64,000 nt of DNA from Minisyncoccota bacterium (GCA_035627595.1 DASPLK010000002.1:224481-288480); one strand, 5' to 3'; numbered from the stretch's first letter, positions 2,690-55,221 are shown. Numbers and translations are program-made. Notes: generated by a model from the letters alone, not told the origin.

Positions 2690-4765
2690 CTAGCGACCAC
2701 GACGTTTTTTCACGCTTCCGGAACGCATAGATTTTTTGCCAGGCGTCTCCCTTCCTTCTAGCGTATAGATTTCGTCTCTAATAAGCGCAGCGGTCTCAAA
2801 ATCTAGAGCCTCCACGGCTTCGGCCATCTGCCGACGCTTATCGGCAAGGAATGTTTTCGGATCCTCAGCGAATAGCTTCTCATCGAGCTCCAAGAGCGAA
2901 TCGACCGTCTTCTGATGATCGCTCCTGAGACTCTCTGCGATATCCCGAATCTCCTTCTTGATAGTGACTGGTGTAATGCCGTGCTTTTTGTTGTAGGTAA
3001 GCTGTATATCACGGCGCCGGTTCGTCTCGGAGATGGCACGCTCCAATGAGCCAGTCATCACGTCTGCATAAAGTATGACGCGGCCAAGTATGTTTCGCGC
3101 AGCACGACCTATCGTCTGGATGAGCGACGTTTCCGAGCGAAGGAATCCTTCCTTATCGGCGTCGAGAATTCCGACCAACTCAACTTCTGGGAGATCAAGA
3201 CCCTCCCTCAATAGATTCACGCCGACCAGAATATCGAACGTACCCTTTCTAAACTCTGTAAGGATAGTTATGCGGTCAATCGTCTTCACGTCGCTATGAA
3301 GGTACTCAGCTGAGATGCCTTTCTCCTTAAGGAAATTCGAAAGATCCTCTGCCATCTGCTTTGTGAGTGTAGTCGCCAACACGCGTCCTCCATTTTTGAT
3401 GACCGCATCAGCCTCGGCGATAAAATCAGCGACTTGTCCCTTGTAATCGCCAGTCTCCGTTACGGGACGGATGATAAGTTCTGGATCGATGAGTCCGGTC
3501 GGGCGGATGATCTGCTCCACCATCTGGCCTATAGGAGGCACGCTCTTCTCCTTTTCGTAGGCACCCGGTGTAGCTGATGTATAGATGACCTGGCCAACTC
3601 GCTCCTCAAATTCATCAAATTTCAGAGGGCGGTTATCGAACGCTGACGGTAGGCGAAATCCATGCTCAACGAGCACCTGCTTTCTGGAGCGATCGCCCGC
3701 GTACATGCCGCCGATCTGAGATACGGTCACATGGGACTCATCGATGACCGTGAGAAATTCAGGCGATCCGTCCTTTGCATGCGGGAAATAGGATAAGAGC
3801 GTATGAGGCGGTTCCCCTGGAGATCGCCCATCGAAGTGTCGCGAATAGTTCTCGATGCCTGTCGTGTATCCAAGCTCACGTATGAGTGATAAGTCGTGAA
3901 GCGTGCGTCGCTTCAATCGCTCATGTTCAAGCTCCTTCCCCTCTCGCTTTAACTGCGCGAGCCGCTCATCGAGTTCTGCCTTTATATCCTCAAGTGCGCG
4001 GTTACGCTCTTGCTCACTTGTCACGAAGTGCTTTGCGGGGAACACGAATATGGAGTCCGGTGATCCGGTCTTAGCGCGCGTTATTGGATCGAGACACTCA
4101 ACCGCAATGACCTTCTCCTCATCAAATATAACGCGGTATATCGCACGCTCATTAACCGGCATAAGCTCTAGAGAGTTGCCTACGCCCCTAAACTGGCCTG
4201 GTGAGAGATCTGCCGTGGTGCGCTCGAAGTAGATGCCGATAAGCTTGCGAATAAGCGAAGCGCGATTCTCTACCTCTCCAACTTTCAACTTCACATGTCG
4301 CTTCTCATACTCAGCAGGTGACCCAAGACCATAGATCGCTGAGACAGAGGCGACAATAATAACGTCCTTGCGGGTTAGGAGCGCCTGAGTCGCGGCGTGT
4401 CGCAGACGGTCGATTTCTGCGTTGATCTGTGCCTCCTTCTCAATATAGGTATCGGAATGCGCAATGTATGCCTCTGGCTGATAGTAGTCATAGTAAGAGA
4501 CAAAGTAGTGCACCTCGTTTTCTGGAAAAAACTCTCGGTACTCCTGTGCCAACTGTGCAGCGAGCGTCTTATTATGCGCCAAGACCAGGGTCGGCTTATC
4601 AATATTCGCTATTACATTTGCGGCCGTGTAGGTCTTACCAGAGCCTGTGACGCCCACGAGGGTTTGATGTCGAAGACCGTCTTTAATGCCCTTTGTGAGG
4701 GATTCTATTGCCTTGGGCTGATCGCCTGCAGGCGGGAAGGGTATGTGGAGCTTGAAGTTAGCCAT
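2690..4765 (-). CDS. uvrB: Excinuclease ABC subunit B (UvrB)
   Basis: LVGVTGSGKTYTAANVIANIDKPTLVLAHNKTLAAQLAQEYREFFPENEVHYFVSYYDYYQPEAY. Helicase motifs, the beta-hairpin region and a C-terminal UvrB/UvrC interaction motif (DFETAALIRDEI). Length 691 aa. Confidence 0.95.
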   Translation of the reverse strand: MANFKLHIPFPPAGDQPKAIESLTKGIKDGLRHQTLVGVTGSGKTYTAANVIANIDKPTLVLAHNKTLAAQLAQEYREFFPENEVHYFVSYYDYYQPEAYIAHSDTYIEKEAQINAEIDRLRHAATQALLTRKDVIIVASVSAIYGLGSPAEYEKRHVKLKVGEVENRASLIRKLIGIYFERTTADLSPGQFRGVGNSLELMPVNERAIYRVIFDEEKVIAVECLDPITRAKTGSPDSIFVFPAKHFVTSEQERNRALEDIKAELDERLAQLKREGKELEHERLKRRTLHDLSLIRELGYTTGIENYSRHFDGRSPGEPPHTLLSYFPHAKDGSPEFLTVIDESHVTVSQIGGMYAGDRSRKQVLVEHGFRLPSAFDNRPLKFDEFEERVGQVIYTSATPGAYEKEKSVPPIGQMVEQIIRPTGLIDPELIIRPVTETGDYKGQVADFIAEADAVIKNGGRVLATTLTKQMAEDLSNFLKEKGISAEYLHSDVKTIDRITILTEFRKGTFDILVGVNLLREGLDLPEVELVGILDADKEGFLRSETSLIQTIGRAARNILGRVILYADVMTGSLERAISETNRRRDIQLTYNKKHGITPVTIKKEIRDIAESLRSDHQKTVDSLLELDEKLFAEDPKTFLADKRRQMAEAVEALDFETAALIRDEIYTLEGRETPGKKSMRSGSVKKRRGR

Positions 4766-6645: not shown

Positions 6646-7188
6646 ATGCTACATCTGAACCGTAAGGGGGGCGTGGTCCTCGCGGCCCTCGCCGCTCTGT
6701 CCACTTCGGCCTGTCTGTCGACTCCGGGATACGACTCTGCGCCGATGGCGGTCCACGCCATCGTCCACAACCCGGACGTCAACGGCGGCCGTCCGTCGCC
6801 CGAAGCAATCGATGCGATCAACCGCTACGCGGCCAGCTGCTACCAGCAACTCGAGTCCCAGGTCCGCGGCCAGTTCGAGTCGGGCCTCCGGTCCGCCGCC
6901 GACTATGGCGTCGCGGGTGCGATCGGCGGCGGCCTCGGCCTCGCCGGCGGCTCCACCGGCTTCGAAGGTGTCGATCCTGCCAGCTACGGCCAGTACGGCG
7001 CCATCGCCGGTGCCGCACAGGGCGCCGCGAGCGGATTCGTCAACGGCCAGGTGACCGGGAGCTACTCGTTCGCCGCCGCCCGTGGCGAGTGCGTGAACGA
7101 CTTCTGGAGCGACGAAAAGGATTCGCGTCCCGAGTATCGGGGCACGCATCCGGTCACGCTGCTGAACGGCCGCTCCGGATCGAACTGA
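6646..7188 (+). CDS. Glycine-zipper (SlyB/Pcp/17-kDa-antigen-like) putative lipoprotein, encoded in a high-GC, GC3-rich foreign-looking cassette
   Basis: Signal peptide plus LSTSAC lipobox-like cysteine. Gly-zipper YGVAGAIGGGLGLAGGSTG...GAIAGAAQGAASG. Codons almost all end in G/C (about 68% GC versus about 54% in flanking tgt and FKBP genes). Confidence 0.6.
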   Translation: MLHLNRKGGVVLAALAALSTSACLSTPGYDSAPMAVHAIVHNPDVNGGRPSPEAIDAINRYAASCYQQLESQVRGQFESGLRSAADYGVAGAIGGGLGLAGGSTGFEGVDPASYGQYGAIAGAAQGAASGFVNGQVTGSYSFAAARGECVNDFWSDEKDSRPEYRGTHPVTLLNGRSGSN

Positions 7189-7230
7189 TCTTCGGCACAA
7201 CACAACCAGGCGTTTCGTAATAGAAACGCA

Positions 7231-7272
7231 GTCGCCGGGCCCTTCTTGGGACCCGGCGACTACTTTTATACC
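7231..7272 (+). terminator. Rho-independent terminator (gtcgccgggccc-ttctt-gggacccggcgac + T-rich tail)
   Basis: 12-bp stem with one bulge, followed by tacttttatacc. Immediately 3' of the lipoprotein CDS. Confidence 0.55.
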
Positions 7273-7278
7273 CTATGA

Positions 7279-7788
7279 CTAGTTAACCGTGAGGAGCTCG
7301 ACGTCGAAGATGAGTGTCGCGTTCGGCGGGATGGGACCTACACCCTGCGCTCCGTAACCCATAGCTGGGGGAATGATGAGGCGGCGCTTGCCACCCTCTT
7401 TCATACCGACAAGGCCCTGATCCCAGCCTGCGATAACAGATCCCTGGCCAAGTACGAACGTAAACGGCTCATTGCCGCGATTGGCAGTCGTATCAAACAC
7501 AGAGCCGTCCGGAAGCATGCCGGTGTAGCGAACAGATACGGTGGTACCAGCCTGCGCCTCGGCACCTGTACCTACTACCTCATCGGTAACAGTTAGCTCG
7601 TTGGGAAGCTCTGCCGGGATCGGCGCGCTCTGGTTTTCGGATTCGGACATGGTATTTGGAAGAAGAATATCCTGATTAGTCTGATTGATGGTTGGTGCGA
7701 ACATGCCCGGCCCGAATACGAGGAGCCCGAAGGCCACAAGTACCGCAAGCGCGACGGCTATCCCAGTTGCTGTTACGTTCATAGTCAA
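7279..7788 (-). CDS. FKBP-type peptidyl-prolyl cis-trans isomerase with N-terminal membrane anchor
   Basis: FTFVLGQGSVIAGWDQGLVGMKEGGKRRLIIPPAMGYGAQGVGPIPPNATLIFDVELLTV is the canonical FKBP C-terminal domain. N-terminal hydrophobic helix. Confidence 0.85.
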   Translation of the reverse strand: MTMNVTATGIAVALAVLVAFGLLVFGPGMFAPTINQTNQDILLPNTMSESENQSAPIPAELPNELTVTDEVVGTGAEAQAGTTVSVRYTGMLPDGSVFDTTANRGNEPFTFVLGQGSVIAGWDQGLVGMKEGGKRRLIIPPAMGYGAQGVGPIPPNATLIFDVELLTVN

Positions 7789-7791
7789 TCG

Positions 7792-8094
7792 TTAATTTCT
7801 GGTTAGCGTAAGTATATCATTGGTCAATTCCTGCACAGCCTCCATTACTGCACTGTCCGCATCAGGCACTTTAAGCTCAATGAAGCCCTGCACTTCCTCT
7901 TCCGAGGCATCACGATCCATAAGTACGCCAAACTCCTCGCGCGTCGCTTCATCCATACGCTCCAAGAGGCGTACGAATGTGCTCTTAAAGATAAGCTCGT
8001 GCAGGCTCAACAGAAGCTCTTGCTGCTCTTCCTCCTCAAGTGCTGTGAAGTTCAGCGCATCGAGAATGTTGTCTGGAATGGTCACTTGGTTCAT
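7792..8094 (-). CDS. Small acidic hypothetical protein (100 aa)
   Basis: ORF of native composition, tightly packed (4-nt gaps) between the giant membrane protein and the FKBP gene. EEEEQQELLL acidic/coiled segment. No known domain recognised. Confidence 0.5.
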   Translation of the reverse strand: MNQVTIPDNILDALNFTALEEEEQQELLLSLHELIFKSTFVRLLERMDEATREEFGVLMDRDASEEEVQGFIELKVPDADSAVMEAVQELTNDILTLTRN

Positions 8095-8097
8095 AGA

Positions 8098-10914
8098 CTA
8101 GGGACTAGGAGTAAAGGGGACGGCGCGGACTAAATCATTCGGATGAGGAATCGAAAGGCCCTGCGCTAGGAAGTAGTCCCCGTTGAGTAGACCGCTGTAT
8201 GGGGTCACTCTTCCTTCAGCATCTGCCACGATCGCTCCTATATTTGGCTGCTGAATGCCAAATACAGACTCTACCGTTGCGTCATACAGAACGCGCACGC
8301 CTGGATGCTCGAGCGCATACGCTTGAGCAAATTCATAACGCTCATTAGTGGTACCGCCATACGCTACGACATCGCCGCGCGAATCAATAAAGATAGCCGG
8401 TTGTCGAGGATCGATATCGACGCCATTAATATTCGTATACGGCTGCGTATAGTCGATAGGACCTTCTGCTGCTGGTGGTTGCGGTAGTGGCTGCTCTTGC
8501 TGGACGGGTCTTGGTGCTTCTGGCTGAGTTTCTGCTGCACTTGGCTCTGCTTGTGGTGCGAGAGGTTCAGGCGAAACTGGTTCCTGCGGAATATCGATCG
8601 GACCTGCTTCGAGTGCTGGGTCTGGAAGGACCTCTGGCTGTACTGGTACTTCCGGTGACGGCTCTGCGGCCGTGACCGAAGGAGCCTCAGTCGGCTGCTG
8701 CTGGATCTCAATAGGCGCGGCTTCTGGAAGTGGTGCAGGAGGAACTTCTGGCTGCACTGGTACTTCCGGTGACGGCTCTGCGGCCGTGACCGAAGGAACC
8801 TCAGTTGGCTGCTGCTGGATCTCAATAGGCGCGGCTTCCGCACTAGTTACTGCAGATGGCACTTCACTTGGAGCGCTCGCCTCCATCGGGAAGCTGTGAC
8901 TTGATGCCAGTGTTCCATCGCTTTCTACAAGCACTGAGCTTAACCCGGAGTTCGGCCGTTCTAGCACGATCTGATTCTCTGCGTTAAGCGTTATGGTGTC
9001 CCCTGGCTGCATAATTACACTTCGTCCATCCTCAAGCTGCAGACCGAGTCGTAGTGTCGCGTTATCCTCTCCTGCAAGCAGTGATGCGCCATCCTCTGTC
9101 CTAAGTAGCTCCAGGAAATTCTTAACAGCGATAGGCTGCTCTTGTCCGGCAAATGCTTCCTCGAGCTGCAAACCAAAATGGCCGACCAGTCGATCTGCGT
9201 TATTTATGTTGCCGGATACTGCGAGGGAGCGAGCTTCTGAAGGAATAGATTCCGCGGATGCTTCGGCCGCACCAGACGTCGCTTCTCCTGCGCCAAGAGA
9301 TGTAGTAGGTGTTTCTGGTTGCTGCGGAACGGTAGCTGTACCTTCCGGAGTTCTATCTGTGCCTGCAACACCGTCAGATGTCCTTGGCTCACCTGCTGGA
9401 CCTGATTCTGCCGCTCGTATTGCGTCGCCCGTCTGCTGCATTTCCGTAAGTGCAACCGCCGTACTGACACCCACACCGAGACCTACAAGCACCTTAAGGA
9501 TTGCCGTCTTTCGCTCGAGCGTCTCATCCATTCCGCGCTCGCGGAGCTGCAGACGCTTGCGCTCGATAGCCTGCAGGACCTCAAGCGTCAATTCCTTATT
9601 CTTGGACATGCGCCGTATCTCCTCTTGTAGCGACTTCTCATCCACGACAGCATCTTTCTGTGCCCTTTCACCGCGCAGCTTCTTATAGAGGAATCCCGCC
9701 GTCTCTGCCGCGGCAAGACCTGCCACAGTAGAGCCAAGCGATCGAAATACGCTAAGTGTGCCGAATCCAGCTGCAGCGACTATACCTGCGGTACCAAACG
9801 AACCGATGAAGGCCGCTCCGCCGGACATCAGAATAGCGCTACTTATCACGCGCGCTGCCTTGCCATACTTCTGACCAAACCTTTCGATAAAGAAATTATC
9901 AAGGCGCTCATTCGCTCTATTCATCCACTGGATGCCCTTCTCTAGGGCGTCCGGCGCCTTCTCTCCAAGTGCCTCGGCGCGCATTGAAATATCGCGATCG
10001 GTGCTTGGCGCAATGATGTCCTTATACAGATGCAGTCCTTCGTACTTGCTGAGCGCGCGCTCTATCCATTCAGGGCTCTTGCCCAGCGCTTCCCAGCGCT
10101 CTCGTGCTGCGCTCTCAAGCGCTGCCTTTGCCTCAAGACGCTTCTGGTCGCGCTCCATGCGTGTGTCGTTTATCTCCATTGAAGCTGCTCCAAGAGGACG
10201 TAGCCTCTTTATGACACGTCCAACAATATTATTGTTCGTATAGAATCGCTTGTACGCGTCTGCATACTTCTGATCTGCCTCAAGCAGTGCTGCATACTGT
10301 TCCTTTGCAGCAACACGCGACTCCAGCGCAAGTGACTCCTTGAACTCCTGGTAGTTTTGCGGACCCTCCTTCGTTGGGTCGACAATATGATTCTCAATTG
10401 CAAATTTCCCTACCGTGGATGCCAGTTCGCTCTTCCATAAACGCTTCATTTCTGCAGGCTTTAGCATCTGTTCTGCGAGCGCCTTCTTCAACGTGTCTGT
10501 ATCTGCCTTCTCTACAACGGCACTTGCGTATGCAAACCGGCCGTCATCTATGGATGCGGTCCCTGCTGTGTTCACGTGCGCTGACTCAACCGGCACGCCA
10601 TCGCCAAGCCCTCCCGTGCGTGCTGCGGCTTCAGGGGCCGGCTCCATTGGAGGCTCCTCTCCGTCAAGCACGAGAGGACGGTAGTTGGACTCATCTTTGC
10701 GACTATTCTTAAGTGCCTCGCCCAGACGGCCTACAACTGCCTTTACATCCTTCTTTAGGTCAGGGCCTACACCAGACATCGCCTCGATAGGAGATCTTCC
10801 ATCAGCGCCCCATGTGGCGGGATCGGCTTCGCTCCTTTGCGTAGGAGTCGCCTGCTTTTTGTCGTCGTCCTGTGGCGGTACGGTGACGGGATCCGGAGGT
10901 ATCTTCTCGGACAT
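8098..10914 (-). CDS. Large (938 aa) membrane-anchored protein with coiled-coil region, Pro/Glu-rich tandem repeats and a C-terminal globular domain; T4SS-associated by position
   Basis: Hydrophobic hairpin AILMSGGAAFIGSFGTAGIVAAAGFGTLSVF...AGLAAAETAGFLY. Long coiled-coil. Two 38-aa repeats EAAPIEIQQQPTEVPSVTAAEPSPEVPVQPEVPPAPLP. Immediately downstream of the VirB4-like ATPase gene. Confidence 0.6.
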   Translation of the reverse strand: MSEKIPPDPVTVPPQDDDKKQATPTQRSEADPATWGADGRSPIEAMSGVGPDLKKDVKAVVGRLGEALKNSRKDESNYRPLVLDGEEPPMEPAPEAAARTGGLGDGVPVESAHVNTAGTASIDDGRFAYASAVVEKADTDTLKKALAEQMLKPAEMKRLWKSELASTVGKFAIENHIVDPTKEGPQNYQEFKESLALESRVAAKEQYAALLEADQKYADAYKRFYTNNNIVGRVIKRLRPLGAASMEINDTRMERDQKRLEAKAALESAARERWEALGKSPEWIERALSKYEGLHLYKDIIAPSTDRDISMRAEALGEKAPDALEKGIQWMNRANERLDNFFIERFGQKYGKAARVISSAILMSGGAAFIGSFGTAGIVAAAGFGTLSVFRSLGSTVAGLAAAETAGFLYKKLRGERAQKDAVVDEKSLQEEIRRMSKNKELTLEVLQAIERKRLQLRERGMDETLERKTAILKVLVGLGVGVSTAVALTEMQQTGDAIRAAESGPAGEPRTSDGVAGTDRTPEGTATVPQQPETPTTSLGAGEATSGAAEASAESIPSEARSLAVSGNINNADRLVGHFGLQLEEAFAGQEQPIAVKNFLELLRTEDGASLLAGEDNATLRLGLQLEDGRSVIMQPGDTITLNAENQIVLERPNSGLSSVLVESDGTLASSHSFPMEASAPSEVPSAVTSAEAAPIEIQQQPTEVPSVTAAEPSPEVPVQPEVPPAPLPEAAPIEIQQQPTEAPSVTAAEPSPEVPVQPEVLPDPALEAGPIDIPQEPVSPEPLAPQAEPSAAETQPEAPRPVQQEQPLPQPPAAEGPIDYTQPYTNINGVDIDPRQPAIFIDSRGDVVAYGGTTNERYEFAQAYALEHPGVRVLYDATVESVFGIQQPNIGAIVADAEGRVTPYSGLLNGDYFLAQGLSIPHPNDLVRAVPFTPSP
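8600..8850. repeat. In-frame tandem repeat, 114-bp period, 2 copies about 90% identical (inside the 938-aa gene)
   Basis: ctggtacttccggtgacggctctgcggccgtgaccgaagga[g/a]cctcagt[c/t]ggctgctgctggatctcaataggcgcggcttc occurs at about 8641 and about 8755. The antisense track ORFs here are repeat artefacts. Confidence 0.7.
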
Positions 10915-11002
10915 ACTGCGCTGGTATAGATATTTGCTAATAGAACGTACTAAAACTTTAGCATGTAGTCAGCACTTACCGCCTTGTCCACTGGGAACAA
11001 GA

Positions 11003-13759
11003 CTAGGAGAGGTACCGCTGCCGAATGGTTCCTTCGACCGTCGCGCGATCCCTGCCGTATGTCAGGTACGACAATTCGCGTAGATCATCTACCTGCTCCA
11101 TATTTCCCTTGTCGAGCTGAATGGTCTTTATGTTAAACGGCTTTTGTGGCACGCCGTTCGCAAGTATGCGTACATACGCATTCCGATTCTCAATATTCAC
11201 AAAATCAAGAGGCTGGAAGGTCGGCGCAAACTGCTTAGCAAAGTACTCCCCATCTTCCTCCCCTACGCGGAATACTGCCATGTTGCCGACGTTGCCGAAC
11301 ACCGCGTCACGAATTTTCTCGTCGACCTGTGCCAGGAACTGGTGTGCAAGGGTAAGTGAGAGCTTGTACTTGCGGGCTTCGGACAAGATGCCCGGAATTG
11401 AGTCCGTGGTGATGTTCTGGAACTCATCGATATAGAGATAGAACGGCGGGAACTGCGTGCCCGGGGAGTCCGCTCTTGATAGCGCAGCCATGAACAACTT
11501 TCCAACCAAGATAAGACCAAGCAGGTTAGCGTTACGCTCACCCAAGCGTCCCTTAGATAGGTTTACGAGAAGGATCTTCTTATTATCGATGACCTCGCGG
11601 AAGTTGAACGAAGAGACCTGCTGTCCGATAATCGGGCGCATAAAGTCATTTGCCGTAAACTCATCGAATTTGTTCGTGATGTACGGCACGATGTTCTGAA
11701 GCGATGCTTCACCCTCGGCCTTGGTAGCGATCTCCATCCAGAATTGGTTCACGACCGGATTGGAGCTTCGTGCAAGCTTGTAATTCCTATACTCGGCGTT
11801 ACTCAGCACACGGCTAATGTCCATAAGCGTAGAGCCCGAGGCGGGGTCCTCCATGACGAGCGTGGTTGCATTTCTGAAGTACTGGATGAAGGCAGGGCCC
11901 ATTGATTCAGGAACATCGCCATACAGCGTCTGAAAGATTGCAAGCATCTCATTGACGATGAATGTCTTTTGCTCGGGCCGCTGCGGATCGTATTCGAGCA
12001 TATTGAGGCCGAATGGCCTGTCGAGGTAGGCCGGATCGAAGTAAATGACGTCTTCATAGCGCTCTGGCGGCACGCTTGCCAGAACTTCAATGATGTCATT
12101 GCCGTGCGGATCGATGAAGCACACGCCATTGCCCGCCTTGATGTCCTGTTCGATGAGAGTTCGAAGGAATCCGGTCTTTCCTGTTCCCGTTTGACCAATA
12201 ACGTAGAGGTGGCGGAGGCGATCCTCCCCGTCGATTTTCACTTCGCTTGTTTGTCCGCGGAAGGTATTGGTGCCGATCAGAATGCCCTGCTTAGGCAGAT
12301 CGACAGGCGCCGCTGCCTGCGTAAAGCGGGCTTGCTTTAGATGCGGAGACGACTGGATGCCCTTAGGTGGGAAGTGGAATATTGTCGTGAGCTCGCGTAG
12401 CGATAGCGGCATCGTGTGGTTGCGGGAAAAAAGACGGAACGAAAAATCGCGGAAGAAGCCGCGCGCCCTTGCCGCTTCATACCGCTTCCAGACCATCTGA
12501 TTGCCGTGCGCACTCTCAAACTGATTGAATGAGGATTCAAGCTCGTGAAGTATTGCATGCGCACGACTAGGATCAGGAGATGATGTTGCAAGACGTATTG
12601 TGGTTGCAACGATCGGGGTTGCTGTCTTCTTCTCAACAAGCAGTATCTCGTCTTTGTTCTCCTCGTTGCGCTTTCGTCGCTCGCGTTCCTCATCTTTCCT
12701 CTGCGCAGAACTACCAAAAAAGGTACTGGCAACCTGTCGAGCAGCTTCACCCGCAAATCCTTCTGGCATGGAAAGCGCGCGCGAGCGATGCTCGCCGCTT
12801 CGAAGCGCATCAAGTACTTTCCGATAGTGCTTCACGTACCGGTCCCTCTGTGGCTGGATGATTATCTGGAGTGCAGCGCCTTCGCCTTCTTCCTGTATTT
12901 TTGCAAATGCGTTTAGTATCGAATTGATCGGATCGTAGTCGAAATCGGTATAGTCCTTTAGAGAAAGCATCGGGTAGTGATGCAGCTCTGCAGCTGAACC
13001 GATTGTCGTACCGCCATCAGCGAAAATGTTGTAATCGTTTGGCTGGCGGGTCAGGTGGGCGTCCGGGAATATGGCAAGAAGCTGCTTTTCGAACAAATCG
13101 CGACGGCCATTGGGGACTGCGGCGAAGAATAGGAGGTGCGGCCTATCAGCAGGCACTGCAAGCTCGAGTGAGAAATACGGTGGCTCTCCAGCGTATGCGT
13201 CCTCTACGGCAAGCATACCTGCGTAAAACTGCTCCATTGAGGAGATCAGTTCCCTTAGCGGCTTTTTAGACCCTCCCTTATCCTCATCACTGAAATCGGG
13301 AAGCGCGATCTCATAGAGCGTCATGTGAAGCGCCTTCCAAGCTGGCTGGTCCTCGCCAAATCCAGGAACCTCCATACGCTGCAATACGTACTGAACAAGG
13401 AATCTATGGAAGTCGTCCTCTAGGTGTGGGCTATTGAGCTTTTCAAGTACCAGGAGCGCGTTCTTGATTCCCTTTTCCTCCATGATGTTCCGGAGCTCTA
13501 GCATGGTCTCGTCGTCGTCGTCCGGATCAAGTTCAAGCGCTAGCGCGTGTGCTTCTTGGGGCTTGAGTGCATAGCCGGGCGCGAGCACCTCGTGCGGCTG
13601 CTCTTTGTGATGAATGATGCGCTCATGCACCACATGCGCACGAGGCACCTCCTGCGTATGAGACGCGAGCTCCCGCTCCTTCGCCTCTACTTGCGCGCGC
13701 AGATGCTCGAGCTCTTCTTCCGGTGTACGGAATTGTTCAACGTATCCTTCAGCCGTCAT
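11003..13759 (-). CDS. Type IV secretion system ATPase, VirB4/TraC/TrbE-family-like (AAA_10/DUF87-type P-loop)
   Basis: Walker A YVIGQTGTGKTGFL, Walker B FYLYIDEF, then ARKYKLSLTLAHQFLAQ (the RK...Q motif typical of conjugative ATPases). Long N-terminal domain of about 480 aa before the P-loop. Start taken at MTAEGYV (AGGT 3 nt upstream) rather than the track start. Confidence 0.7.
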   Translation of the reverse strand: MTAEGYVEQFRTPEEELEHLRAQVEAKERELASHTQEVPRAHVVHERIIHHKEQPHEVLAPGYALKPQEAHALALELDPDDDDETMLELRNIMEEKGIKNALLVLEKLNSPHLEDDFHRFLVQYVLQRMEVPGFGEDQPAWKALHMTLYEIALPDFSDEDKGGSKKPLRELISSMEQFYAGMLAVEDAYAGEPPYFSLELAVPADRPHLLFFAAVPNGRRDLFEKQLLAIFPDAHLTRQPNDYNIFADGGTTIGSAAELHHYPMLSLKDYTDFDYDPINSILNAFAKIQEEGEGAALQIIIQPQRDRYVKHYRKVLDALRSGEHRSRALSMPEGFAGEAARQVASTFFGSSAQRKDEERERRKRNEENKDEILLVEKKTATPIVATTIRLATSSPDPSRAHAILHELESSFNQFESAHGNQMVWKRYEAARARGFFRDFSFRLFSRNHTMPLSLRELTTIFHFPPKGIQSSPHLKQARFTQAAAPVDLPKQGILIGTNTFRGQTSEVKIDGEDRLRHLYVIGQTGTGKTGFLRTLIEQDIKAGNGVCFIDPHGNDIIEVLASVPPERYEDVIYFDPAYLDRPFGLNMLEYDPQRPEQKTFIVNEMLAIFQTLYGDVPESMGPAFIQYFRNATTLVMEDPASGSTLMDISRVLSNAEYRNYKLARSSNPVVNQFWMEIATKAEGEASLQNIVPYITNKFDEFTANDFMRPIIGQQVSSFNFREVIDNKKILLVNLSKGRLGERNANLLGLILVGKLFMAALSRADSPGTQFPPFYLYIDEFQNITTDSIPGILSEARKYKLSLTLAHQFLAQVDEKIRDAVFGNVGNMAVFRVGEEDGEYFAKQFAPTFQPLDFVNIENRNAYVRILANGVPQKPFNIKTIQLDKGNMEQVDDLRELSYLTYGRDRATVEGTIRQRYLS

Positions 13760-14196: not shown

Positions 14197-14532
14197 CTAC
14201 CGCCTCCTTAACCCAGCCCCAAAGAGAGCGCTGATAAGTGCGAGAAGTATCGCAAAGATGAGCGCCCACCAGAAATTGTCTACAGAGAACCCAGGGACCA
14301 CCATCGCTGCCAGCATGATGAGAAGCGCGTTCACGACAAGCGAGAACAGTCCGAGCGTCACAATGTTGAGCGGAAGGGTAAGTAGGTTAATGATCGGCTT
14401 GATGAACATGTTGATAAGTGCGAGCACGACTGCCAAGAGAAGCGCACCGATCGGGTTGACGTCGACGCCCGGCAAGAGCATTGCCGCAAGCCCAATAGCT
14501 AGCGCCGTGATAAGCCACTGGATGATGGTCAT
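14197..14532 (-). CDS. DUF360 / phage-holin-4_2 (YvlD-like) family 4-TM membrane protein
   Basis: Four hydrophobic helices. MTIIQWLITALAIGLAAMLLPGV...NPIGALLLAVVLALINMFIKPI matches the YvlD/DUF360 pattern. Confidence 0.6.
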   Translation of the reverse strand: MTIIQWLITALAIGLAAMLLPGVDVNPIGALLLAVVLALINMFIKPIINLLTLPLNIVTLGLFSLVVNALLIMLAAMVVPGFSVDNFWWALIFAILLALISALFGAGLRRR

Positions 14533-16007: not shown

Positions 16008-17663
16008 TTAAGCGTAGGTGAGCCGCAGGATGCGCAAGTCGTCGTACGAGTATTTTTTCTTCAGACCCGCATGTGCAGGAGCGAGTTTCTCTGCCCCAAC
16101 CTTCGAGAAAGTCTCGTGCACAATATCCTCGTGCTTCTTGAGGCGCTCTGGTATGAGCGCTGCTATGTCTCCTCTAGAAAGCGTTCCTTCTGCCTTTAGT
16201 TTCTCCACATGGTCACAGATAGTGCCAACGGTAAGCACACGTAGCTTGGCGATCTCGGGTATGTTGTGTCCTGCGCGCACCAGCTCAAGCGTCTCCTCCT
16301 GTGTCGAGATTTTCTTTTTAGGAGCGCCGATTGGCTCGACGCTGCCGCCTGCTGCTTGTATGAAATTGCGCTCCATAGCCTCTCGTTCGCCGTTGTCCTC
16401 AAGGATGGTGAATGCTCCGCGGGCAGCCTCCGAAAGCTCTCGGAATGACTTATCCATCCTCCCTACATCCGGATGTACAGAAAAAGCATGCTCGGACCAT
16501 CCAAGAAGATGAAGTCCCGAAAGGGACCGTACGCGTGATAGCGCGACGTATCCCTGCCCATGCTCAAACACGCGCGACAAATCCATTGCCGCCTGGTCCA
16601 TGCTCATACCCTGGCTCTTATGCACCGTAATAGCCCACGCAAGACGCAACGGCACCTGCGTTACCTTTGCGCGCACCTTGCCATCTTCTTCAACCGCCCA
16701 ATCAGCCGGGGCGATTGTAAGAGAGCGACCATCAGCGGTCTCGATGATAGGGTTGCCGGTCGCATGCTCAAATCCCTCCACCTTCCCGAGCGTGCCGTTT
16801 GCATACCCCGCCGCCTGATTATTCTTCGTACACATGACGAGCGCGCCAGGCCTGAGCATGAGACGCTCTGGTGAAAGACAGCCTCGCTTCAAAGATTCGA
16901 TTAGGGTTGGGGCGCCGCTCGACTCCATCTCGTACACCTTGGACGCTCCTTTCAGCTTCTGTAGCTGCTCCTCGTTGATACGGTCTACATCCTCGTTATG
17001 TGTATATAGGCGCGGCACTTCGTCCTCGAGGTCCGATCCCTCTGTCTCGCGCGCGGTTATCTCCGATACATGCGTATGGTCCCACGTGCCCTCGCGGATG
17101 GCGGTAAGGACGTCGAGGAATGTATCGTCCTCCTGACGGTGTTGTTCGAGGAGATAACATACGAGCGGATTGAGTGCGCGCCATGCATCCGACTCAAACG
17201 CAAAAGATATAGAGGCGCCTCTGCGCCCGATGGGCGGGAGCTGGAAGAAATCACCGACAAGTACCACTTGCAGACCACCAAATGCGAGCTCGCTACCGCG
17301 CACTTCCCGACAAACGCGATCGACCATAGAAAGCACATCGCCTGAGAGCATGGAAATCTCGTCGATGATAAGCACGCGTGCCTTCTGTATGCGCTTCACC
17401 GTATGCTCCTTGCTCTGGATGCGATCGAGAAGCTCTGGAGTGAGTCGGTCGCTTATCCCGATGCCGCTCCACGAATGAATTGTAAGACCGTGGATATGGG
17501 TCGCCGCGATACCGGTCGATGCCGTTATGGAGGGCTCGATGCCATGCTCCCTTAACCACGTAACATATGCATTTACCGTATGTGTCTTTCCCGCACCGGG
17601 ACTACCGGTTAGAAATACGTTCGCACCGGTTTTAAGGATCTGCAAAGCCTCACCCTGGGTCAT
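16008..17663 (-). CDS. PIF1/RecD-family (AAA_30) ATP-dependent DNA helicase
   Basis: Walker A VFLTGSPGAGKTH. Walker B VLIIDEISML. UvrD_C-like region LAWAITVHKSQGMSMD. C-terminal HTH-like tail. Confidence 0.75.
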   Translation of the reverse strand: MTQGEALQILKTGANVFLTGSPGAGKTHTVNAYVTWLREHGIEPSITASTGIAATHIHGLTIHSWSGIGISDRLTPELLDRIQSKEHTVKRIQKARVLIIDEISMLSGDVLSMVDRVCREVRGSELAFGGLQVVLVGDFFQLPPIGRRGASISFAFESDAWRALNPLVCYLLEQHRQEDDTFLDVLTAIREGTWDHTHVSEITARETEGSDLEDEVPRLYTHNEDVDRINEEQLQKLKGASKVYEMESSGAPTLIESLKRGCLSPERLMLRPGALVMCTKNNQAAGYANGTLGKVEGFEHATGNPIIETADGRSLTIAPADWAVEEDGKVRAKVTQVPLRLAWAITVHKSQGMSMDQAAMDLSRVFEHGQGYVALSRVRSLSGLHLLGWSEHAFSVHPDVGRMDKSFRELSEAARGAFTILEDNGEREAMERNFIQAAGGSVEPIGAPKKKISTQEETLELVRAGHNIPEIAKLRVLTVGTICDHVEKLKAEGTLSRGDIAALIPERLKKHEDIVHETFSKVGAEKLAPAHAGLKKKYSYDDLRILRLTYA

Positions 17664-17702: not shown

Positions 17703-19016
17703 TTACAACCCAAGAACGGAACGGACGGTGTTTACCGTATTACGAATCGTATCTGATCCAGAGGAAGAGCTTGTTGAAGAGCTATCGCTGTCGTTTTGGG
17801 AATCCTCATCATCCTGGGAATCCTGTGAAGCATCATCACCGCGAGAATTATCCGATGAACTCTTATCGTTTTTCTTATCCCTATCGCTTTCCTCATCATT
17901 TGCGTCCTCTGCATCTGTACTGGTAGCAGTGTCTCCATCATCGGACTCTGGAATCTTAAGCAGCATCACTGCAGCATCAGCGGGACCGGTAGCTGCTGCA
18001 GACGCCTCCTCTGTAGCGGGCACAGATGCGGAAGAAGACTCGATCGCCCGAGTCGGAATCGGCTGGGGGGCAAGCGCAAGGATGCCCCGGTTACGAGCGA
18101 GTATTGAAGCTTCATGCGTGAAGCGCGCGGCGGCCTGAGTTGCGACGTATGCAATACCACCCTCTCCACGCGCGCTCGATGCACGCGCGCTCTCAAGCGC
18201 TACACGTGCAGCATTGATGCGAGCATCTATACTTCCTCCTGCCGCGCCTTCGACCTTAGTCGTGCGAGCAACCTCTTCCGTCACACGCTCTGCAACCTCT
18301 ATCTGCCTATCTCCGTACGCTAGCGCCCTGCGAGACACCTCGGTTTCTGTCTCCTGACGCTCAGCCGCAACCGTATCGCGCTTCTCTGCGATGCGCGCAA
18401 GTAGCTTTGCCGCTTCAGGTCGCTCTGCATCTGAGGCAATGTATGAAAATAGATCCACATGCGCGGAAAGGCGTGCTTCAAGATCCGAATGCACGGCAAG
18501 CGCGACCGCAACATCACCCTTGGCGCGCACTTCCCCAGCAGCACCACTTGAGCGCTCAGCGTGACGTGCGAACCGCTCTTCAAGGTCTATGCGCGTAACC
18601 TCATCAAGCCTGTCTGTCGTGGCAAGCGTCGCAGCTTCAGTAAGGCGTCTCTCAGCGAGTATCGCGTTCCAGGTAGCGCGTGCCTTCGCGTCATACAAAA
18701 GCGCGCTCTCCAACGGTTCTACAACCTGCGTCTTTACTGCGTAAAGCTTATCGCCAGGGAGGGCGCCATTTGATGCATATGCAACGCCGCCCATGGATAC
18801 AGCAATAAGAAGCGCCGCAAAGCCGCCCTGAAGGAGGCGGAGCGAGAGCGGCTCAAATAGGGAAAGGCGAGAACGCGTCGGGAGGGTATTCGATATCGCA
18901 TGTAAATCGGCGTAGGCGGCGAGGCGCTCGCGAACGACGTCGCGCACGCGCGGCTGCATCTGTATACGCCGCATATAGTCGGAAAGTATTCGAACGAAAT
19001 CCTTGAATGTGTTCAT
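17703..19016 (-). CDS. Putative anti-sigma factor (DUF5667-like), membrane protein with Asp/Ser-rich acidic C-terminal tail
   Basis: Overlaps the ECF sigma stop by 4 nt. Single TM (GGFAALLIAVSMGGVAYA). Low-complexity tail DDGDTATSTDAEDANDEESDRDKKNDKSSSDN. Confidence 0.5.
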   Translation of the reverse strand: MNTFKDFVRILSDYMRRIQMQPRVRDVVRERLAAYADLHAISNTLPTRSRLSLFEPLSLRLLQGGFAALLIAVSMGGVAYASNGALPGDKLYAVKTQVVEPLESALLYDAKARATWNAILAERRLTEAATLATTDRLDEVTRIDLEERFARHAERSSGAAGEVRAKGDVAVALAVHSDLEARLSAHVDLFSYIASDAERPEAAKLLARIAEKRDTVAAERQETETEVSRRALAYGDRQIEVAERVTEEVARTTKVEGAAGGSIDARINAARVALESARASSARGEGGIAYVATQAAARFTHEASILARNRGILALAPQPIPTRAIESSSASVPATEEASAAATGPADAAVMLLKIPESDDGDTATSTDAEDANDEESDRDKKNDKSSSDNSRGDDASQDSQDDEDSQNDSDSSSTSSSSGSDTIRNTVNTVRSVLGL

Positions 19017-19516
19017 ACTGCGTGTATAAGCCCTTGCACCTTCTTTATAGCGCGATTGATGCGCACTGATACTGCGTTTGCTGATTCGCCGGACATCGCC
19101 GCAATCTCCTTAGGCGTGAACCCGTCGACAAACCGGAGGATAAGCGCCTCTCGAGAATCCTCGTCGAGCTGATCGATGACGCGAAGCACTTCATTCATCT
19201 CAGCGCTTCGCTCTATCTTCTTGTGATCATCATTTCCGAAGTCGATACCCTGTTCGGTTAGAACATCTAGCGAGCTCTCCTTCTTCTTACGGTACCAGTC
19301 GATGATTAGGTTACGGGCGAGTGTATAGAGGTAGGCGCGCTCGTTCTTCATCTTCTCCCCTTCACGGATGGTCTGCCAGTACCTCATGAAGACCTCCTGG
19401 GTTAGATCCTGCGCCAGTTCCCGATTCGTAACCTTCACGGAGCAGAAACGGTATATGTCATTAGCATACGTATCATACGTACGCAGGAAGTCCGCCTTCA
19501 GTTCCGTCTGGTCCAT
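19013..19516 (-). CDS. ECF-type sigma-70 family RNA polymerase sigma factor
   Basis: Region 2 DIYRFCSVKVTNRELAQDLTQEVFMRYW. Region 4 HTH EALILRFVDGFTPKEIAAMSGESANAVSVRINRAIKK. Start trimmed to MDQTELK (167 aa). Confidence 0.8.
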   Translation of the reverse strand: MDQTELKADFLRTYDTYANDIYRFCSVKVTNRELAQDLTQEVFMRYWQTIREGEKMKNERAYLYTLARNLIIDWYRKKKESSLDVLTEQGIDFGNDDHKKIERSAEMNEVLRVIDQLDEDSREALILRFVDGFTPKEIAAMSGESANAVSVRINRAIKKVQGLIHAV

Positions 19517-19684
19517 AGTTATGACGAGTGCACCCCTACCGCTCTTACCAGCGAAAACCGGCGCATGTTCAACTATAGCAAACGCTGTGAGCGATGGGTC
19601 AGGAAGGGTGCCGCCCGAAGAGCTCGTGTTTTGACGAGCTCTTGTATGCACCTCCGGCGTATGTGCGTCGGCGCGCTGCATTGG

Positions 19685-20756: not shown

Positions 20757-21026
20757 ATGGAACATCTTTCGGAACTTGAACTCAGACATCGGCTCAGCGA
20801 GGCCGAGGCGCTTGTCGAAAAAGGTGCGCGCTATGCGCACTACAAACACCCAGAGCAGTCGTACTCTGTCATTGGCTTTGCGATCCGTGAGGACTCCCAG
20901 GACGTCTGTGTTATCTACGAAGCCGAGTATGGCGAAACGATTCCGTTCATACGGACGCTTGCAAGTTTTGTGGAGAGCGTTGAGGTAGACGGAGTAAGCG
21001 TTCCTCGCTTCTCGCGCCTCCCCTAG
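20757..21026 (+). CDS. DUF1653 domain protein
   Basis: RYAHYKHPEQSYSVIGFAIREDSQDVCVIYEAEYGETIPFIRTLASFVESVEVDGVSVPRF matches the DUF1653 pattern (YxHYK...YxV...VxY...RP...F...V). RBS AGGATAAAGGA. Confidence 0.65.
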   Translation: MEHLSELELRHRLSEAEALVEKGARYAHYKHPEQSYSVIGFAIREDSQDVCVIYEAEYGETIPFIRTLASFVESVEVDGVSVPRFSRLP

Positions 21027-22474
21027 TCAAGTACGTACGCTATATCGGCCTCAGCACCTTCAAGTCGCGCGATAAGCTCATCATGCTCGCGTGCAGTGAG
21101 TACACGCACACTCTTTCCATTTCTCGAGTCTAAAAGATACCGCGCAAGTATCTTGTAGGTATCATAGTCGAATGCTTGGCTTGGCTCTACCAGCGGACTG
21201 TAGTCTTCGCCATCATATCGGTAGCATCCAGCAAGTATCCAATTGTCTATAAGGAAGACTGTGCCGGCACTTTCCGATTCTGCCTCGGTTATTAGGACAG
21301 GGCCTCGGTACGGCCAGGTACGCAGCTTGCGCGCCTTAAACGCCTCCTCTATGCGTGCGTTATGCACTTGGGCTGATGCTTTCCCAAGACATGCGCCGTC
21401 GCACTGTCCGAGCTGGCGCGCGAAGCATGCTGTCTTGGCTTCTTCAATGCCAAGAAGTTTGTGGCAGATGCCATACTCCTTCGCAAGAACGCGAAGCTTG
21501 GCCTTGCCCTGTGTCGTCGTGCGAAATACAGCAAGGACATCCTCGCCCGGGCTCTCCGCATCCGCACGTTCAAGCGCCACGTGCGCATATCCGTCCTCAA
21601 GCCTTTTCCTTGCGATAACAAGTGTCTTTCGCTTCCTCAGCGCTCGGTTATACAAAGGCTGCTGCTTCTTAATGAGCGATGCTTCCAAAATGAGGGCGGA
21701 GAGTTCTCCCGAGGTACGCACAGCGCTTACAGACCGCGCATCATCCGTGATCCTCTTCCCTTGCATGTCGGTGCGCGCAAAATGAGAGCGGGCGCGGCTT
21801 CTCACATGTTTAGACTTCCCTACATACAGAAGCTCCTCATCTGGACCATAAAAGAGATACACGCCTGCGGAATCAGGAAGCGTAGAAAGTGTTTCCTTAG
21901 CCGGAAAACGGGTTGCGCGCCCCGTACGCACGCGATGTACCGCATCAGCAAGCCGGGCTTCAGGCGTATGCATGGCAGCATCCTGCATGAAGTCCCATAC
22001 CGCCTCAGCGTCTGGGAGCGCGCGGTGCCTTATCGGGGCGGTAAGTCCATGTCGTGCAATGACCGCATCAAGACTGTGCCCTCGCGCGTCTGGATACAGT
22101 GCTCGAGATAGCGCGACCGTGCACAAGCGCTCAGGCGCAAATGGCATGTCCAAGCGCTTGAACTCGTGCTGCATGAAGTTGAAATCGAACGCGGCGTTAT
22201 GCGCGACGAAGACTGCATCTTTAAGGAGCTCCTCGACTTGGAGCGCGACGTCCTCGAATTGCGGTGCTCGGGCGACATCCTCCTCGCGTATGGTTGTAAA
22301 GCTCTGTATAGAAGGTGGGATACGCGTACCGGGATTAAGGAGTGTAGAGAATCTCTCCACGACTCTACCGTGCTCGACGCGGATGATACCTATGTCCATG
22401 ACACGGGAATACGGCGGACGCATTCCGGTTGTCTCAGTGTCGATGATGGAAAAAACTTCTGGGTACGCCTTCAT
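21023..22474 (-). CDS. DnaQ-like 3'-5' exonuclease fused to GIY-YIG (UvrC/Cho-like) nuclease domain
   Basis: Exo I FSIIDTETTGM. Exo II/III region VFVAHNAAFDFNFM...H. GIY-YIG GVYLFYGPDEELLYVGKSKHVRSRARSHF. 20 nt downstream of the Y-family polymerase gene. Confidence 0.75.
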   Translation of the reverse strand: MKAYPEVFSIIDTETTGMRPPYSRVMDIGIIRVEHGRVVERFSTLLNPGTRIPPSIQSFTTIREEDVARAPQFEDVALQVEELLKDAVFVAHNAAFDFNFMQHEFKRLDMPFAPERLCTVALSRALYPDARGHSLDAVIARHGLTAPIRHRALPDAEAVWDFMQDAAMHTPEARLADAVHRVRTGRATRFPAKETLSTLPDSAGVYLFYGPDEELLYVGKSKHVRSRARSHFARTDMQGKRITDDARSVSAVRTSGELSALILEASLIKKQQPLYNRALRKRKTLVIARKRLEDGYAHVALERADAESPGEDVLAVFRTTTQGKAKLRVLAKEYGICHKLLGIEEAKTACFARQLGQCDGACLGKASAQVHNARIEEAFKARKLRTWPYRGPVLITEAESESAGTVFLIDNWILAGCYRYDGEDYSPLVEPSQAFDYDTYKILARYLLDSRNGKSVRVLTAREHDELIARLEGAEADIAYVLD

Positions 22475-22494
22475 ACAAGAACAAGGGACGCGAA

Positions 22495-23781: not shown

Positions 23782-24344
23782 ACATACTTGCGAAAAGTTG
23801 CGGTCACGACCCCAATAATCTCTCCTTCCTTTGGGTAGATGTCCGGGTACTTCTCATTCGCTGCCTCAAGATAATAGGTGGCACCTCTTTTCCTTAAGTA
23901 CTTGAGCGTATATCCATCCTCGGTCAGAGCGACCACGATCTGACCTGGCTTGTGATCGTGAGTTCGCTCGAAGACGACCATGTCGCCATTGTGTATGCCG
24001 GCGTCCTCCATGGAATCACCCTCTACCTCGAGCAGGTAGCTCGCTTCGGGGCGCCGTATAAGGTATTCACCTATCGAAATGGTATCTGCGAGCTCTTCTT
24101 CTGCGGGGGCCGCGAAGCCTGCGCGAATGTGTCCGACGAGTGGTAGCTCGTGGAGGGCGGCGGCAGGCACGAGTCGACCGGTCCGATCCTTATCAGCTAC
24201 ACCCGCGGCAATTAGCTTTTGGACCACGTAGTGCGCAGAGCTTCTCGAAGAGAGCCCGCAGAGCTCCATGACCTCAGTGATAGAGGGCATGCGCTTATTC
24301 GCGCGGTAGAACTTCAGGATGCTGCTCTTGTACGCCTCGTTCAT
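23778..24344 (-). CDS. lexA: LexA-type repressor (HTH + S24 peptidase)
   Basis: N-terminal wHTH. C-terminal S24 domain LEVEGDSMEDAGIHNGDMVVFERT...GQIVVAL...TLKYLRK (Ser/Lys dyad context). Perfect GAAC-N4-GTTC box 17 nt upstream. Confidence 0.8.
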   Translation of the reverse strand: MNEAYKSSILKFYRANKRMPSITEVMELCGLSSRSSAHYVVQKLIAAGVADKDRTGRLVPAAALHELPLVGHIRAGFAAPAEEELADTISIGEYLIRRPEASYLLEVEGDSMEDAGIHNGDMVVFERTHDHKPGQIVVALTEDGYTLKYLRKRGATYYLEAANEKYPDIYPKEGEIIGVVTATFRKYV

Positions 24345-54632: not shown

Positions 54633-54634
54633 AC

Positions 54635-55204: not shown

Positions 55205-55221
55205 ACGAAAATGATAGCACC

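Follow-up and report, generated by a model that had tools for sequence, protein, structure and literature searches.

An orphan coupling-protein-like ATPase and a variable surface-protein cassette in a clade-specific operon of a Paceibacteria genome

Bacteria of the Candidate Phyla Radiation (CPR) depend on other cells, and genes related to type IV secretion systems (T4SSs) offer one of the few clues to this dependence. Here we analyze a 64,000-nucleotide stretch of a Minisyncoccota genome (GCA_035627595.1, DASPLK010000002.1:224481-288480; the whole stretch is called the window, and positions are counted from its first letter). Its minus strand encodes four co-oriented proteins, in this order: an ATPase, a 938-aa membrane protein, a small acidic protein and an FKBP-type peptidyl-prolyl isomerase (PPIase). 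The sequence and structural signatures of the ATPase place it in the type IV coupling-protein branch (VirD4/TraD/TrwB) of the FtsK/HerA superfamily, and the four-gene locus is no type IV secretion gene cluster. We favor, with middling confidence, a reading in which an orphan coupling-protein ATPase, probably serving a distal CPR T4SS, shares its operon with a clade-specific surface cassette. Altogether, we regard the ATPase gene as an unremarkable orphan homologue of coupling proteins and the variable surface-protein cassette next to it as mildly interesting. The host is a Paceibacteria bacterium (Parcubacteria, CPR) and the locus is chromosomal. Calling and translating open reading frames (ORFs) gives the following genes:

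11003..13759, minus strand: gene 1, 918-aa P-loop ATPase, VirD4/TraD/TrwB coupling-protein-like, soluble, with a DUF8128 N-domain
8098..10914, minus strand: gene 2, 938-aa hypervariable membrane protein
7792..8094, minus strand: gene 3, 100-aa acidic protein, pI 4.05, DUF5663-like
7279..7788, minus strand: gene 4, 169-aa FKBP-type PPIase with an N-terminal membrane anchor

The ATPase itself can be divided on the basis of motif scans and an AlphaFold2 model (pLDDT 86.6, pTM 0.71), which resolves three parts, namely a helical extension, an alpha/beta N-domain and a RecA-like core:

13382..13723, minus strand: helical N-terminal extension, residues 13-126 (helices in the model), which replaces the membrane anchor of most distant relatives
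12380..13324, minus strand: alpha/beta N-domain, residues 146-460 (secondary structure of the model), equal to Pfam DUF8128
11120..12292, minus strand: RecA-like ATPase core, residues 490-880 (motifs and model)
12173..12196, minus strand: Walker A motif GQTGTGKT, residues 522-529 (motif scan)
11420..11440, minus strand: Walker B motif YLYIDEF, residues 774-780 (motif scan)
11339..11377, minus strand: RK...Q motif ARKYKLSLTLAHQ, residues 795-807 (motif scan)
11627..11971, minus strand: all-helical insert between core strands, residues 597-711 (model)

The three motifs had already been picked out in an earlier, sequence-only reading of this DNA, and all of them are indeed present; judged by these motifs, the motor is catalytically intact. 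Residues G522, G525, G527, K528, D778, E779, R796, K797 and Q807 of the core, together with Q298 and K378 of the N-domain, are invariant in 56-62 relatives.

Profile searches point consistently at coupling proteins. In Pfam, the ATPase matches DUF87/HerA (3e-7) and TraG-D_C (3e-6), both over their cutoffs (27.6 against 22 bits for TraG-D_C), and TrwB_AAD_bind in the window protein alone reaches 15.8 bits, under the 20.5-bit cutoff. When 56 relatives are scanned singly, TrwB_AAD_bind is found in 56/56 (best 3e-13), DUF87 in 55, TraG-D_C in 54 and T4SS-DNA_transf in 29; FtsK_SpoIIIE attains an E-value of 0.01 at best. The best NCBIfam match, TIGR03743 TraD, scores 49 bits where 366 are required. 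Run against the PDB, a profile built from 62 relatives retrieves TrwB (7.8e-7) and DotL/IcmO (7.4e-6), with HerA marginal (E 0.064-0.6) and neither VirB4 nor FtsK among the matches. Structure comparison of the core by Foldseek against the PDB agrees, as TrwB gives the best superposition (TMt 0.65-0.70, rmsd ~5 Å), followed by Cag-beta (TMt 0.52-0.55) and HerA (TMt 0.51-0.53). HerA and FtsK are thus weaker matches than coupling proteins, both in the profile E-values and in superposition (HerA TMt 0.53, below TrwB), and none of their partners or accessory domains (NurA nuclease, FtsK membrane and gamma domains) occurs in the ATPase or its neighbors. The class is accordingly VirD4 and not plain FtsK/HerA, and membership in the conjugation/T4SS ATPase superfamily, as first proposed, is borne out by the coupling-protein signatures.

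The more specific proposal of a VirB4-family protein does not survive these comparisons. TIGR00929 VirB4 of NCBIfam scores 15 bits against a 643-bit cutoff and covers the P-loop only, and the CagE_TrbE_VirB N-domain family of Pfam has no match in the ATPase, nor is it among the 25 families listed for the 56 relatives. A profile restricted to the N-domain finds nothing real in the PDB, and no VirB4. Its alignment by hhalign to the N-domain of one VirB4-like protein of plasmid CP120602.1 (559 aa as rebuilt, the gene spanning the record start) receives a probability of 0.8%. On the Pfam, NCBIfam, PDB-profile and hhalign results, VirB4 identity was rejected.

The family to which the ATPase belongs is large and already catalogued. 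An exhaustive phmmer search retrieves 20,703 cluster representatives at E<=1e-3 and 5,163 at E<=1e-30, mostly from CPR, and DUF8128 (PF26449) has precomputed matches on all 120 listed homologues, including a 95%-identical orthologue; the local Pfam scan of the window protein returned none. Relatives of ~800 aa align only from query residue ~142 on. N-terminal transmembrane helices are carried by 83 of the 121 distant representatives (67 with one, 16 with two), and no such helix is found in the window ATPase or in 120/120 close homologues, and the ~910-930-aa subfamily is likewise devoid of any. Since the helices are missing from the close homologues and present in most distant ones, the window ATPase falls into a soluble subfamily in which a ~140-residue helical extension stands in the anchor's place. 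The longest family members (1.1-2.0 kaa, up to 2,006 aa) owe their length to added Pro/Ala-rich disordered tails; as these tails hold no recognizable domain and no similarity to the 938-aa protein, they were rejected as Rosetta-stone fusions.

Conservation of the ATPase is on a par with that of UvrB: the protein is 95% identical where the DNA is ~80% identical. Neither the window nor the flanks of related loci yielded a second copy, and the ATPase is therefore a strongly conserved, single-copy core gene without adjoining T4SS genes. GenBank names within the family include 'TraM recognition domain-containing protein' and 'putative VirD4 component', and the orphan status of such CPR genes has already been published. 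A survey of 3,035 CPR genomes reported 5,713 VirD4-like homologues in 2,918 of them (96%), only 148 of which lie near virB4, and VirB4 in 2,417 genomes (80%); its authors leave open the exaptation of orphan VirD4-like genes for other functions (Quinonero-Coronel et al., 2025; PMC12102498). This amounts to about two VirD4-like genes per CPR genome (PMC12102498), so that a genome may hold one soluble ~915-aa and one anchored ~800-aa type. Literature searches for DUF5663, PF26449 and DUF8128 found nothing.

Relatives also exist outside the CPR. The Bacillus subtilis plasmid CP120602.1 encodes, at 6439-9180, a 913-aa soluble DUF87 protein that aligns to query residues 194-906 (BLASTP 1e-30) and lies upstream of the conjugation genes TcpC, TcpD and TcpE. 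In phages, phrog_5156 (function unknown) matches ATPase residues 194-914 at 8e-75, and homologues occur in Bacillus phage G (gp156; JN638751.1 90946-93063) as well as in SPO1-like and CP-51-like phages.

In order to assess which neighbors accompany the ATPase, 80 loci from species-representative genomes were compared locally, and the main counts were taken over the 53 of these with at least 58% ATPase identity and at least 4.5 kb of downstream sequence; the related loci come from metagenome-assembled genomes of Parcubacteria, Kaiserbacteria and Paceibacterota. An FKBP gene lies within 5 kb downstream of the ATPase in all 53 clade loci. In 34 of them a large protein follows that shares its C-terminal domain with the 938-aa protein, and in 27 a DUF5663-like acidic protein (30 loci overall, between the big gene and the FKBP gene). 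In 10 of the 53 (10-11 loci in all), the big and acidic genes are missing and the FKBP gene is the next one downstream of the ATPase. These direct-FKBP loci are spread over at least five separate ATPase clusters, which indicates that loss of the two genes was repeated, and their ATPases are still 63-71% identical to that of the window. With shorter loci included, the C-terminal, or tip, domain of the big protein is present in 43; in each it forms the C-terminus of the gene next downstream of the ATPase, and no other gene within +/-10 kb carries it.

Beyond this clade the arrangement dissolves. At seven loci with a ~52% identical ATPase, the neighbors are unrelated housekeeping genes and the big, acidic and FKBP genes are lacking, and the more distant relative P0146 is adjoined by triose-phosphate isomerase and unknown genes, with no conserved partner. 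Given the repeated losses and the absence of both genes at ~52% identity, the ATPase is independent of genes 2 and 3 and does not need them. Position is similarly conserved for the FKBP gene (61/80), a holin-like gene (56/80) and TGT (55/80), and Pif1 is also kept in place; as TGT and the holin-like gene are retained about as often as the FKBP gene, much of the adjacency reflects general collinearity of the clade. The operon structure is thus real, yet clade-specific, the neighbors being kept with the ATPase only in one Paceibacteria clade.

Two observations concern individual loci of this set. Four of them (L021, L024, L025 and L058) have no long ORF after the ATPase, and tblastn recovers fragments of the big protein in L021 and L058; the space in question may represent pseudogenes, frameshifts or assembly errors. 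Many others (L003, L007, L010, L015 and L018 among them) bear 'uncultured Candidatus Saccharibacteria' titles on a Paceibacteria-type locus with the same synteny and a 65-71% identical ATPase, and these titles are probably taxonomic mislabels.

The four genes of the window are tightly arranged, although less uniformly than the 4-nt gaps of the sequence-only reading implied, for the gaps measure 88 nt between genes 1 and 2, 3 nt between genes 2 and 3, and 3 nt between genes 3 and 4. The interval 8098-13759, given there for all four genes, spans only the ATPase and the 938-aa gene. Two elements bear on their expression as a unit:

10915..11002, minus strand: spacer of 88 nt between the ATPase and 938-aa genes
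7228..7263, minus strand: terminator-like hairpin after the FKBP stop codon (15 pairs, 11 of them G-C), which ends the operon

No terminator-like site was found on the minus strand between the four genes, the 88-nt spacer included, and in related loci the ORF downstream of the ATPase begins from a few to ~16 nt past the end of the ATPase match. The four-gene unit is probably co-transcribed. Chance ORFs are ruled out, the ATPase having >2,200 word-indexed homologues. Its raw ORF extends to 13831; since homologues measure 908-920 aa and a 95%-identical protein has 918 aa, the ATG at 13759 is the likely start. Upstream lies one further gene of fixed position:

14197..14532, minus strand: 111-aa protein with four transmembrane segments, PF04020 Phage_holin_4_2 (Pfam 3e-30), 437 nt upstream of the ATPase in the window

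Where this holin-like gene precedes the ATPase in the related loci, it is often ~70-120 nt away, and in relatives it could belong to the same transcription unit.

The 938-aa protein encoded by gene 2 has no Pfam, NCBIfam, PHROG or PDB sequence match, is deposited as a hypothetical protein and has only 3 word-indexed homologues. Its regions are as follows:

Residues 1-130: low-complexity N-terminus
Residues 131-352: charged region, helix-like by composition only, where a long coiled-coil had been proposed
9442..9858, minus strand: membrane region, residues 353-491 (Kyte-Doolittle scan, composition)
Residues 353-400: Gly/Ala-rich hydrophobic hairpin
Residues 401-468: Lys/Arg-rich loop
Residues 469-491: third hydrophobic (transmembrane) segment
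8905..9234, minus strand: middle extracellular domain, residues 561-670 (model pLDDT 55-84)
8455..8904, minus strand: Pro/Glu-rich disordered stalk, residues 671-820 (composition; pLDDT <50)
8633..8838, minus strand: tandem repeat in the stalk (TRF; period 114 bp or 38 aa, 1.8 copies, 96% matches)
8101..8454, minus strand: alpha/beta tip domain of ~118 aa, residues 821-938 (pLDDT ~90 in the core)

Much of what had been read from the sequence of this protein holds. The Pro/Glu-rich repeats are recovered as the 114-bp tandem repeat, the C-terminal globular domain is predicted with a confident fold, and the proposed single transmembrane hairpin is found at residues ~353-400, with the third hydrophobic segment as an addition. 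Because of this third segment, the C-terminal half is predicted to lie outside the cell, and the positive-inside rule would leave the N-terminal half in the cytoplasm. The protein is thus probably membrane-anchored and surface-exposed, in keeping with its earlier description as a possible surface component of a CPR bacterium. Proline makes up 8.6% of its whole ectodomain, and 50-residue stretches of the stalk contain 10-14 prolines each. Local jackhmmer searches find the middle domain in 35 loci and in no gene but the one following the ATPase, and a profile of the tip domain retrieves only 7 proteins, mostly short, on short contigs and none with a Pfam domain. Foldseek searches of the ectodomains against the PDB and the viral structures of BFVD return nothing with E<0.2, which leaves a phage receptor-binding-like or lectin-like fold unsupported.

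The most striking property of the 938-aa protein is its divergence. In the closest relative (locus L082, used for both protein and DNA comparison), it is 56% identical as a whole and 28% identical in the tip domain, next to 95% for the ATPase, 94% for UvrB, 92% for the FKBP, 88% for Pif1, 87% for TGT and 86% for the DUF5663-like protein. DNA identity to L082 is ~80% in the flanking genes, falls to 29-43% with many gaps over 8075-8640, the tip-domain DNA being unalignable, and recovers just past the stop codon. In other pairs of loci with 80-93% identical ATPases, the big proteins are mostly 25-47% identical. Divergence can also be mosaic, as one pair shows 77% identity in the tip and 43% in the rest and another pair 26% and 47%, and by these values the tip domain looks shuffled between lineages. 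Such a pattern is in keeping with a surface protein that undergoes diversifying selection or swaps domains. A diversity-generating retroelement was considered as the source of the variable tip and rejected, since the 64-kb window contains no second copy of 8098-8520 that could serve as template repeat, and no reverse transcriptase is found among the ORFs scanned.

The two small proteins that close the operon, a small acidic protein and an FKBP isomerase, were correctly recognized from the outset. The acidic protein, with its pI of 4.05, matches PF18908 DUF5663 at E 2.3e-3 and 18.9 bits, under the 23.7-bit cutoff, and its 86%-identical orthologue carries a recorded DUF5663 match (E<=1e-5). The FKBP comprises two parts:

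7705..7767, minus strand: membrane anchor, residues 8-28 (hydrophobic segment)
7291..7560, minus strand: FKBP_C catalytic domain (PF00254, 1.1e-34, model positions 3-94 of 94)

This combination fits a membrane-tethered extracytoplasmic foldase. As the FKBP gene keeps its place with or without the big gene, a general foldase role appears likelier than a dedicated one.

A T4SS-like module at this site, which had been proposed as well, is not supported. Among its ORFs scanned with Pfam, no VirB4, VirB3, VirB6, VirB8, VirB1 or relaxase is found, and the only genes of T4SS type are two encoding VirB2-like pilins, ~40 kb from the ATPase:

53115..54113, minus strand: VirB2-like pilin, 332 aa, PF18895
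55222..56214, minus strand: VirB2-like pilin, 330 aa, PF18895

Between them lie two small ORFs without a Pfam match (54114..54662 and 54635..55246), and ParB (50252..51220) and tRNA-Trp are nearby. The region 53115..56214 is probably part of a CPR T4SS pilin cluster.

The wider neighborhood is chromosomal housekeeping and includes UvrB, TGT, a two-component system, Pif1, an ECF sigma factor, a Y-family polymerase, TopA, RelA/SpoT, ParB, ClpB and IF-2. Pif1 (16008..17663) and UvrB (2690..4765) lie on opposite sides of the operon. An SOS-type repair cluster occupies 21023..24344 on the minus strand, with a LexA-like S24 peptidase (23778..24344), the Y-family polymerase (22495..23781) and an RNase_T plus GIY-YIG exonuclease (21023..22474), an orthologue of which carries UvrC_M and Cho_C matches. 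The ECF sigma factor (19013..19681, minus strand) is followed by a 437-aa protein (17703..19016, minus strand) with a weak DUF5667 match and only 69% identity in the closest relative; the two are likely a sigma/anti-sigma pair. Next to an M23 peptidase (28279..28857) lies a type IV pilin-like protein (28897..29382; both minus strand), whose N-terminus bears a methylation motif. On the opposite strand, the interval between the FKBP gene and TGT encodes (6646..7188, plus) a Gly/Ala-rich protein of 180 aa that bears a lipoprotein-like signal (…ALSTSAC…). Identity to the protein in the equivalent position of the closest relative is only 29%, which makes it another fast-evolving envelope protein at the locus.

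How might these components work? In the reading that we favor, the ATPase would form a ring at the cytoplasmic face of the membrane, by analogy with TrwB, and would spend ATP on receiving or moving a substrate, either DNA or protein. It would probably serve a CPR T4SS encoded elsewhere in the genome (VirB4, VirB6 and VirB2-like pilins), and might reach the membrane via a partner bound by its helical extension. Genes 2-4 would constitute a clade-specific surface cassette that shares the ATPase transcript, in which the stalk of the 938-aa protein would display the hypervariable tip outside the cell, possibly for host or partner contact, and the FKBP would act as a general foldase for secreted, proline-rich proteins.

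Several points weigh against this reading. The ATPase scores far under every NCBIfam curated cutoff, lacks the N-terminal membrane anchor of canonical coupling proteins and has R388 TrwK/VirB4 chains as its first Foldseek matches by E-value (4e-13, ~900 aligned columns). Its link to a distal T4SS is inferred only, with no VirB4 in the window. Homologues of the same architecture in large Bacillus phages and in phrog_5156 fit badly with a purely conjugative role, and the presence of VirD4-like proteins in 2,918 CPR genomes, compared with 2,417 for VirB4 (PMC12102498), suggests that some of them may act without a T4SS. In addition, the t4cp homologue of Ca. Southlakia epibionticum is reported to be dispensable for epibiotic growth, unlike other T4SS genes (PMC12102498). 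The top Foldseek rank, together with the size and soluble two-domain layout that the ATPase shares with VirB4, is also what could be said for the earlier proposal, a T4SS-like module whose ATPase is of the VirB4 family and in which the 938-aa protein is a channel or adhesin component. The corresponding superposition is poor (TM 0.26-0.32, rmsd 16 Å), and together with the missing VirB4 signatures in sequence profiles and N-domain comparisons and the lack of VirB3, VirB6 and VirB8 genes nearby, this makes such a module very improbable.

Two further explanations compete with this reading. The four genes could form a dedicated module, that is, one CPR-specific display or uptake machine in which the cytoplasmic, helical half of the 938-aa protein serves as docking site for the ATPase, which powers insertion, export or remodelling of this protein or of a passing substrate, the DUF5663-like protein acts as adaptor or chaperone, and the FKBP folds the proline-rich ectodomain outside. 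Tight spacing on one strand ahead of a single terminator argues for this, as do the confinement of the tip-domain protein to the position directly after the ATPase, the exchange of anchor for helical extension, which would create the need for a partner in reaching the membrane, and the presence of a membrane-tethered PPIase next to so proline-rich an ectodomain. We nevertheless consider it rather unlikely: the big and acidic genes have been lost in at least five lineages that retain both the FKBP and a well-conserved ATPase, the ~52% identical ATPases share the soluble architecture yet adjoin unrelated housekeeping genes, and the likewise conserved positions of TGT, Pif1 and the holin-like gene point in part to general collinearity. 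Alternatively, the ATPase could be an exapted housekeeping motor with a T4SS-independent intracellular task such as DNA translocation, segregation or repair, as for HerA/FtsK, its operon partners being incidental. UvrB-like conservation, a family that is more widespread than VirB4 and rarely near virB4, the reported dispensability of the Southlakia homologue (PMC12102498), the DUF87/HerA matches in Pfam and in structure, a neighborhood rich in DNA repair genes (Pif1, UvrB, Y-family polymerase, LexA-like peptidase) and the homologues in large Bacillus phages are all in line with this possibility. It is rendered fairly doubtful by the fact that every best sequence and structure match of the core is a conjugative coupling protein and not HerA/FtsK, by the lack of an adjoining NurA-like nuclease or other HerA partner, by the membrane anchors of most distant family members, which indicate work at the membrane, and by the non-CPR homologue in a plasmid conjugation region. 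We speculate, as a distinctly improbable variant, that the operon could encode a minimal, CPR-specific contact-dependent translocation system independent of any T4SS. The ATPase, deprived of its own anchor, would dock on the variable protein's cytoplasmic half with the DUF5663-like protein as adaptor and would drive the export or uptake of DNA or protein at a host-contact site, the swappable and diversifying tip conferring specificity and the FKBP acting as the outside foldase.

VirD4-like genes away from a T4SS cluster are found in nearly every CPR genome. If the ATPase and the surface protein work together, the locus would provide a testable handle on host specificity; if they do not, it is another orphan coupling-protein gene in a conserved housekeeping neighborhood. 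Apparently undescribed so far are the split into soluble and anchored subfamilies and the exclusive partnership, in a single clade, of the ATPase with a hypervariable surface protein that matches no known fold, both of which are modest additions.

Compared with known systems, the ATPase most resembles the type IV coupling proteins, such as TrwB of R388, VirD4, TraD, DotL/IcmO and Cag-beta, with which it shares the P-loop core, the Walker A and B motifs and the C-terminal RK...Q motif, the TraG-D_C and TrwB_AAD_bind signatures, and the best PDB sequence matches and domain superposition. Its core also carries an all-helical insert (residues 597-711 in the model), a possible counterpart of the TrwB all-alpha domain. 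It differs from them in having no N-terminal transmembrane anchor and an extra ~480-residue N-terminal part, made up of the helical extension and DUF8128, and in its position, which is not beside relaxase or T4SS genes and belongs to the chromosomal core and not to a mobile element. The 913-aa protein of CP120602.1, phrog_5156 and phage G gp156 share a DUF8128-like N-domain, a coupling-protein ATPase and the lack of transmembrane segments; they differ in that identity is only 21-23%, that they reside on a plasmid or phage and that all are uncharacterized, and the CP120602.1 copy moreover ends in an acidic C-terminal tail and belongs to a cluster of conjugation genes. VirB4 proteins are soluble and consist of an N-domain and a C-terminal ATPase. 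TrwK of R388 accordingly resembles the window ATPase in this two-domain layout, in length and in its first place by Foldseek E-value, and departs from it in global superposition, in the VirB4 signature and in the company of VirB3, VirB6 and VirB8.

For the isomerase, the PrsA-type lipoproteins and anchored FKBPs of monoderm bacteria offer a parallel, as they too combine an N-terminal anchor with a PPIase domain, an arrangement that suggests a role in folding exported proteins; unlike PrsA, the window isomerase has the FKBP fold and not that of parvulin, and its position is independent of the big surface-protein gene. A loose precedent for a connection between the two functions comes from Streptococcus suis, in which deletion of virD4 altered secretion of the PPIase PrsA, an effect on secretion levels that involves no operon (PMC5133265). 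As for the CPR survey, neither the DUF8128 N-domain nor soluble and anchored subfamilies are described in it, and a term search finds no mention of FKBP or peptidyl-prolyl isomerase (PMC12102498). The orphan VirD4-like homologues that it documents are nonetheless the natural company of the ATPase analyzed here, being likewise chromosomal, located away from virB4 and present in nearly all CPR genomes (PMC12102498).

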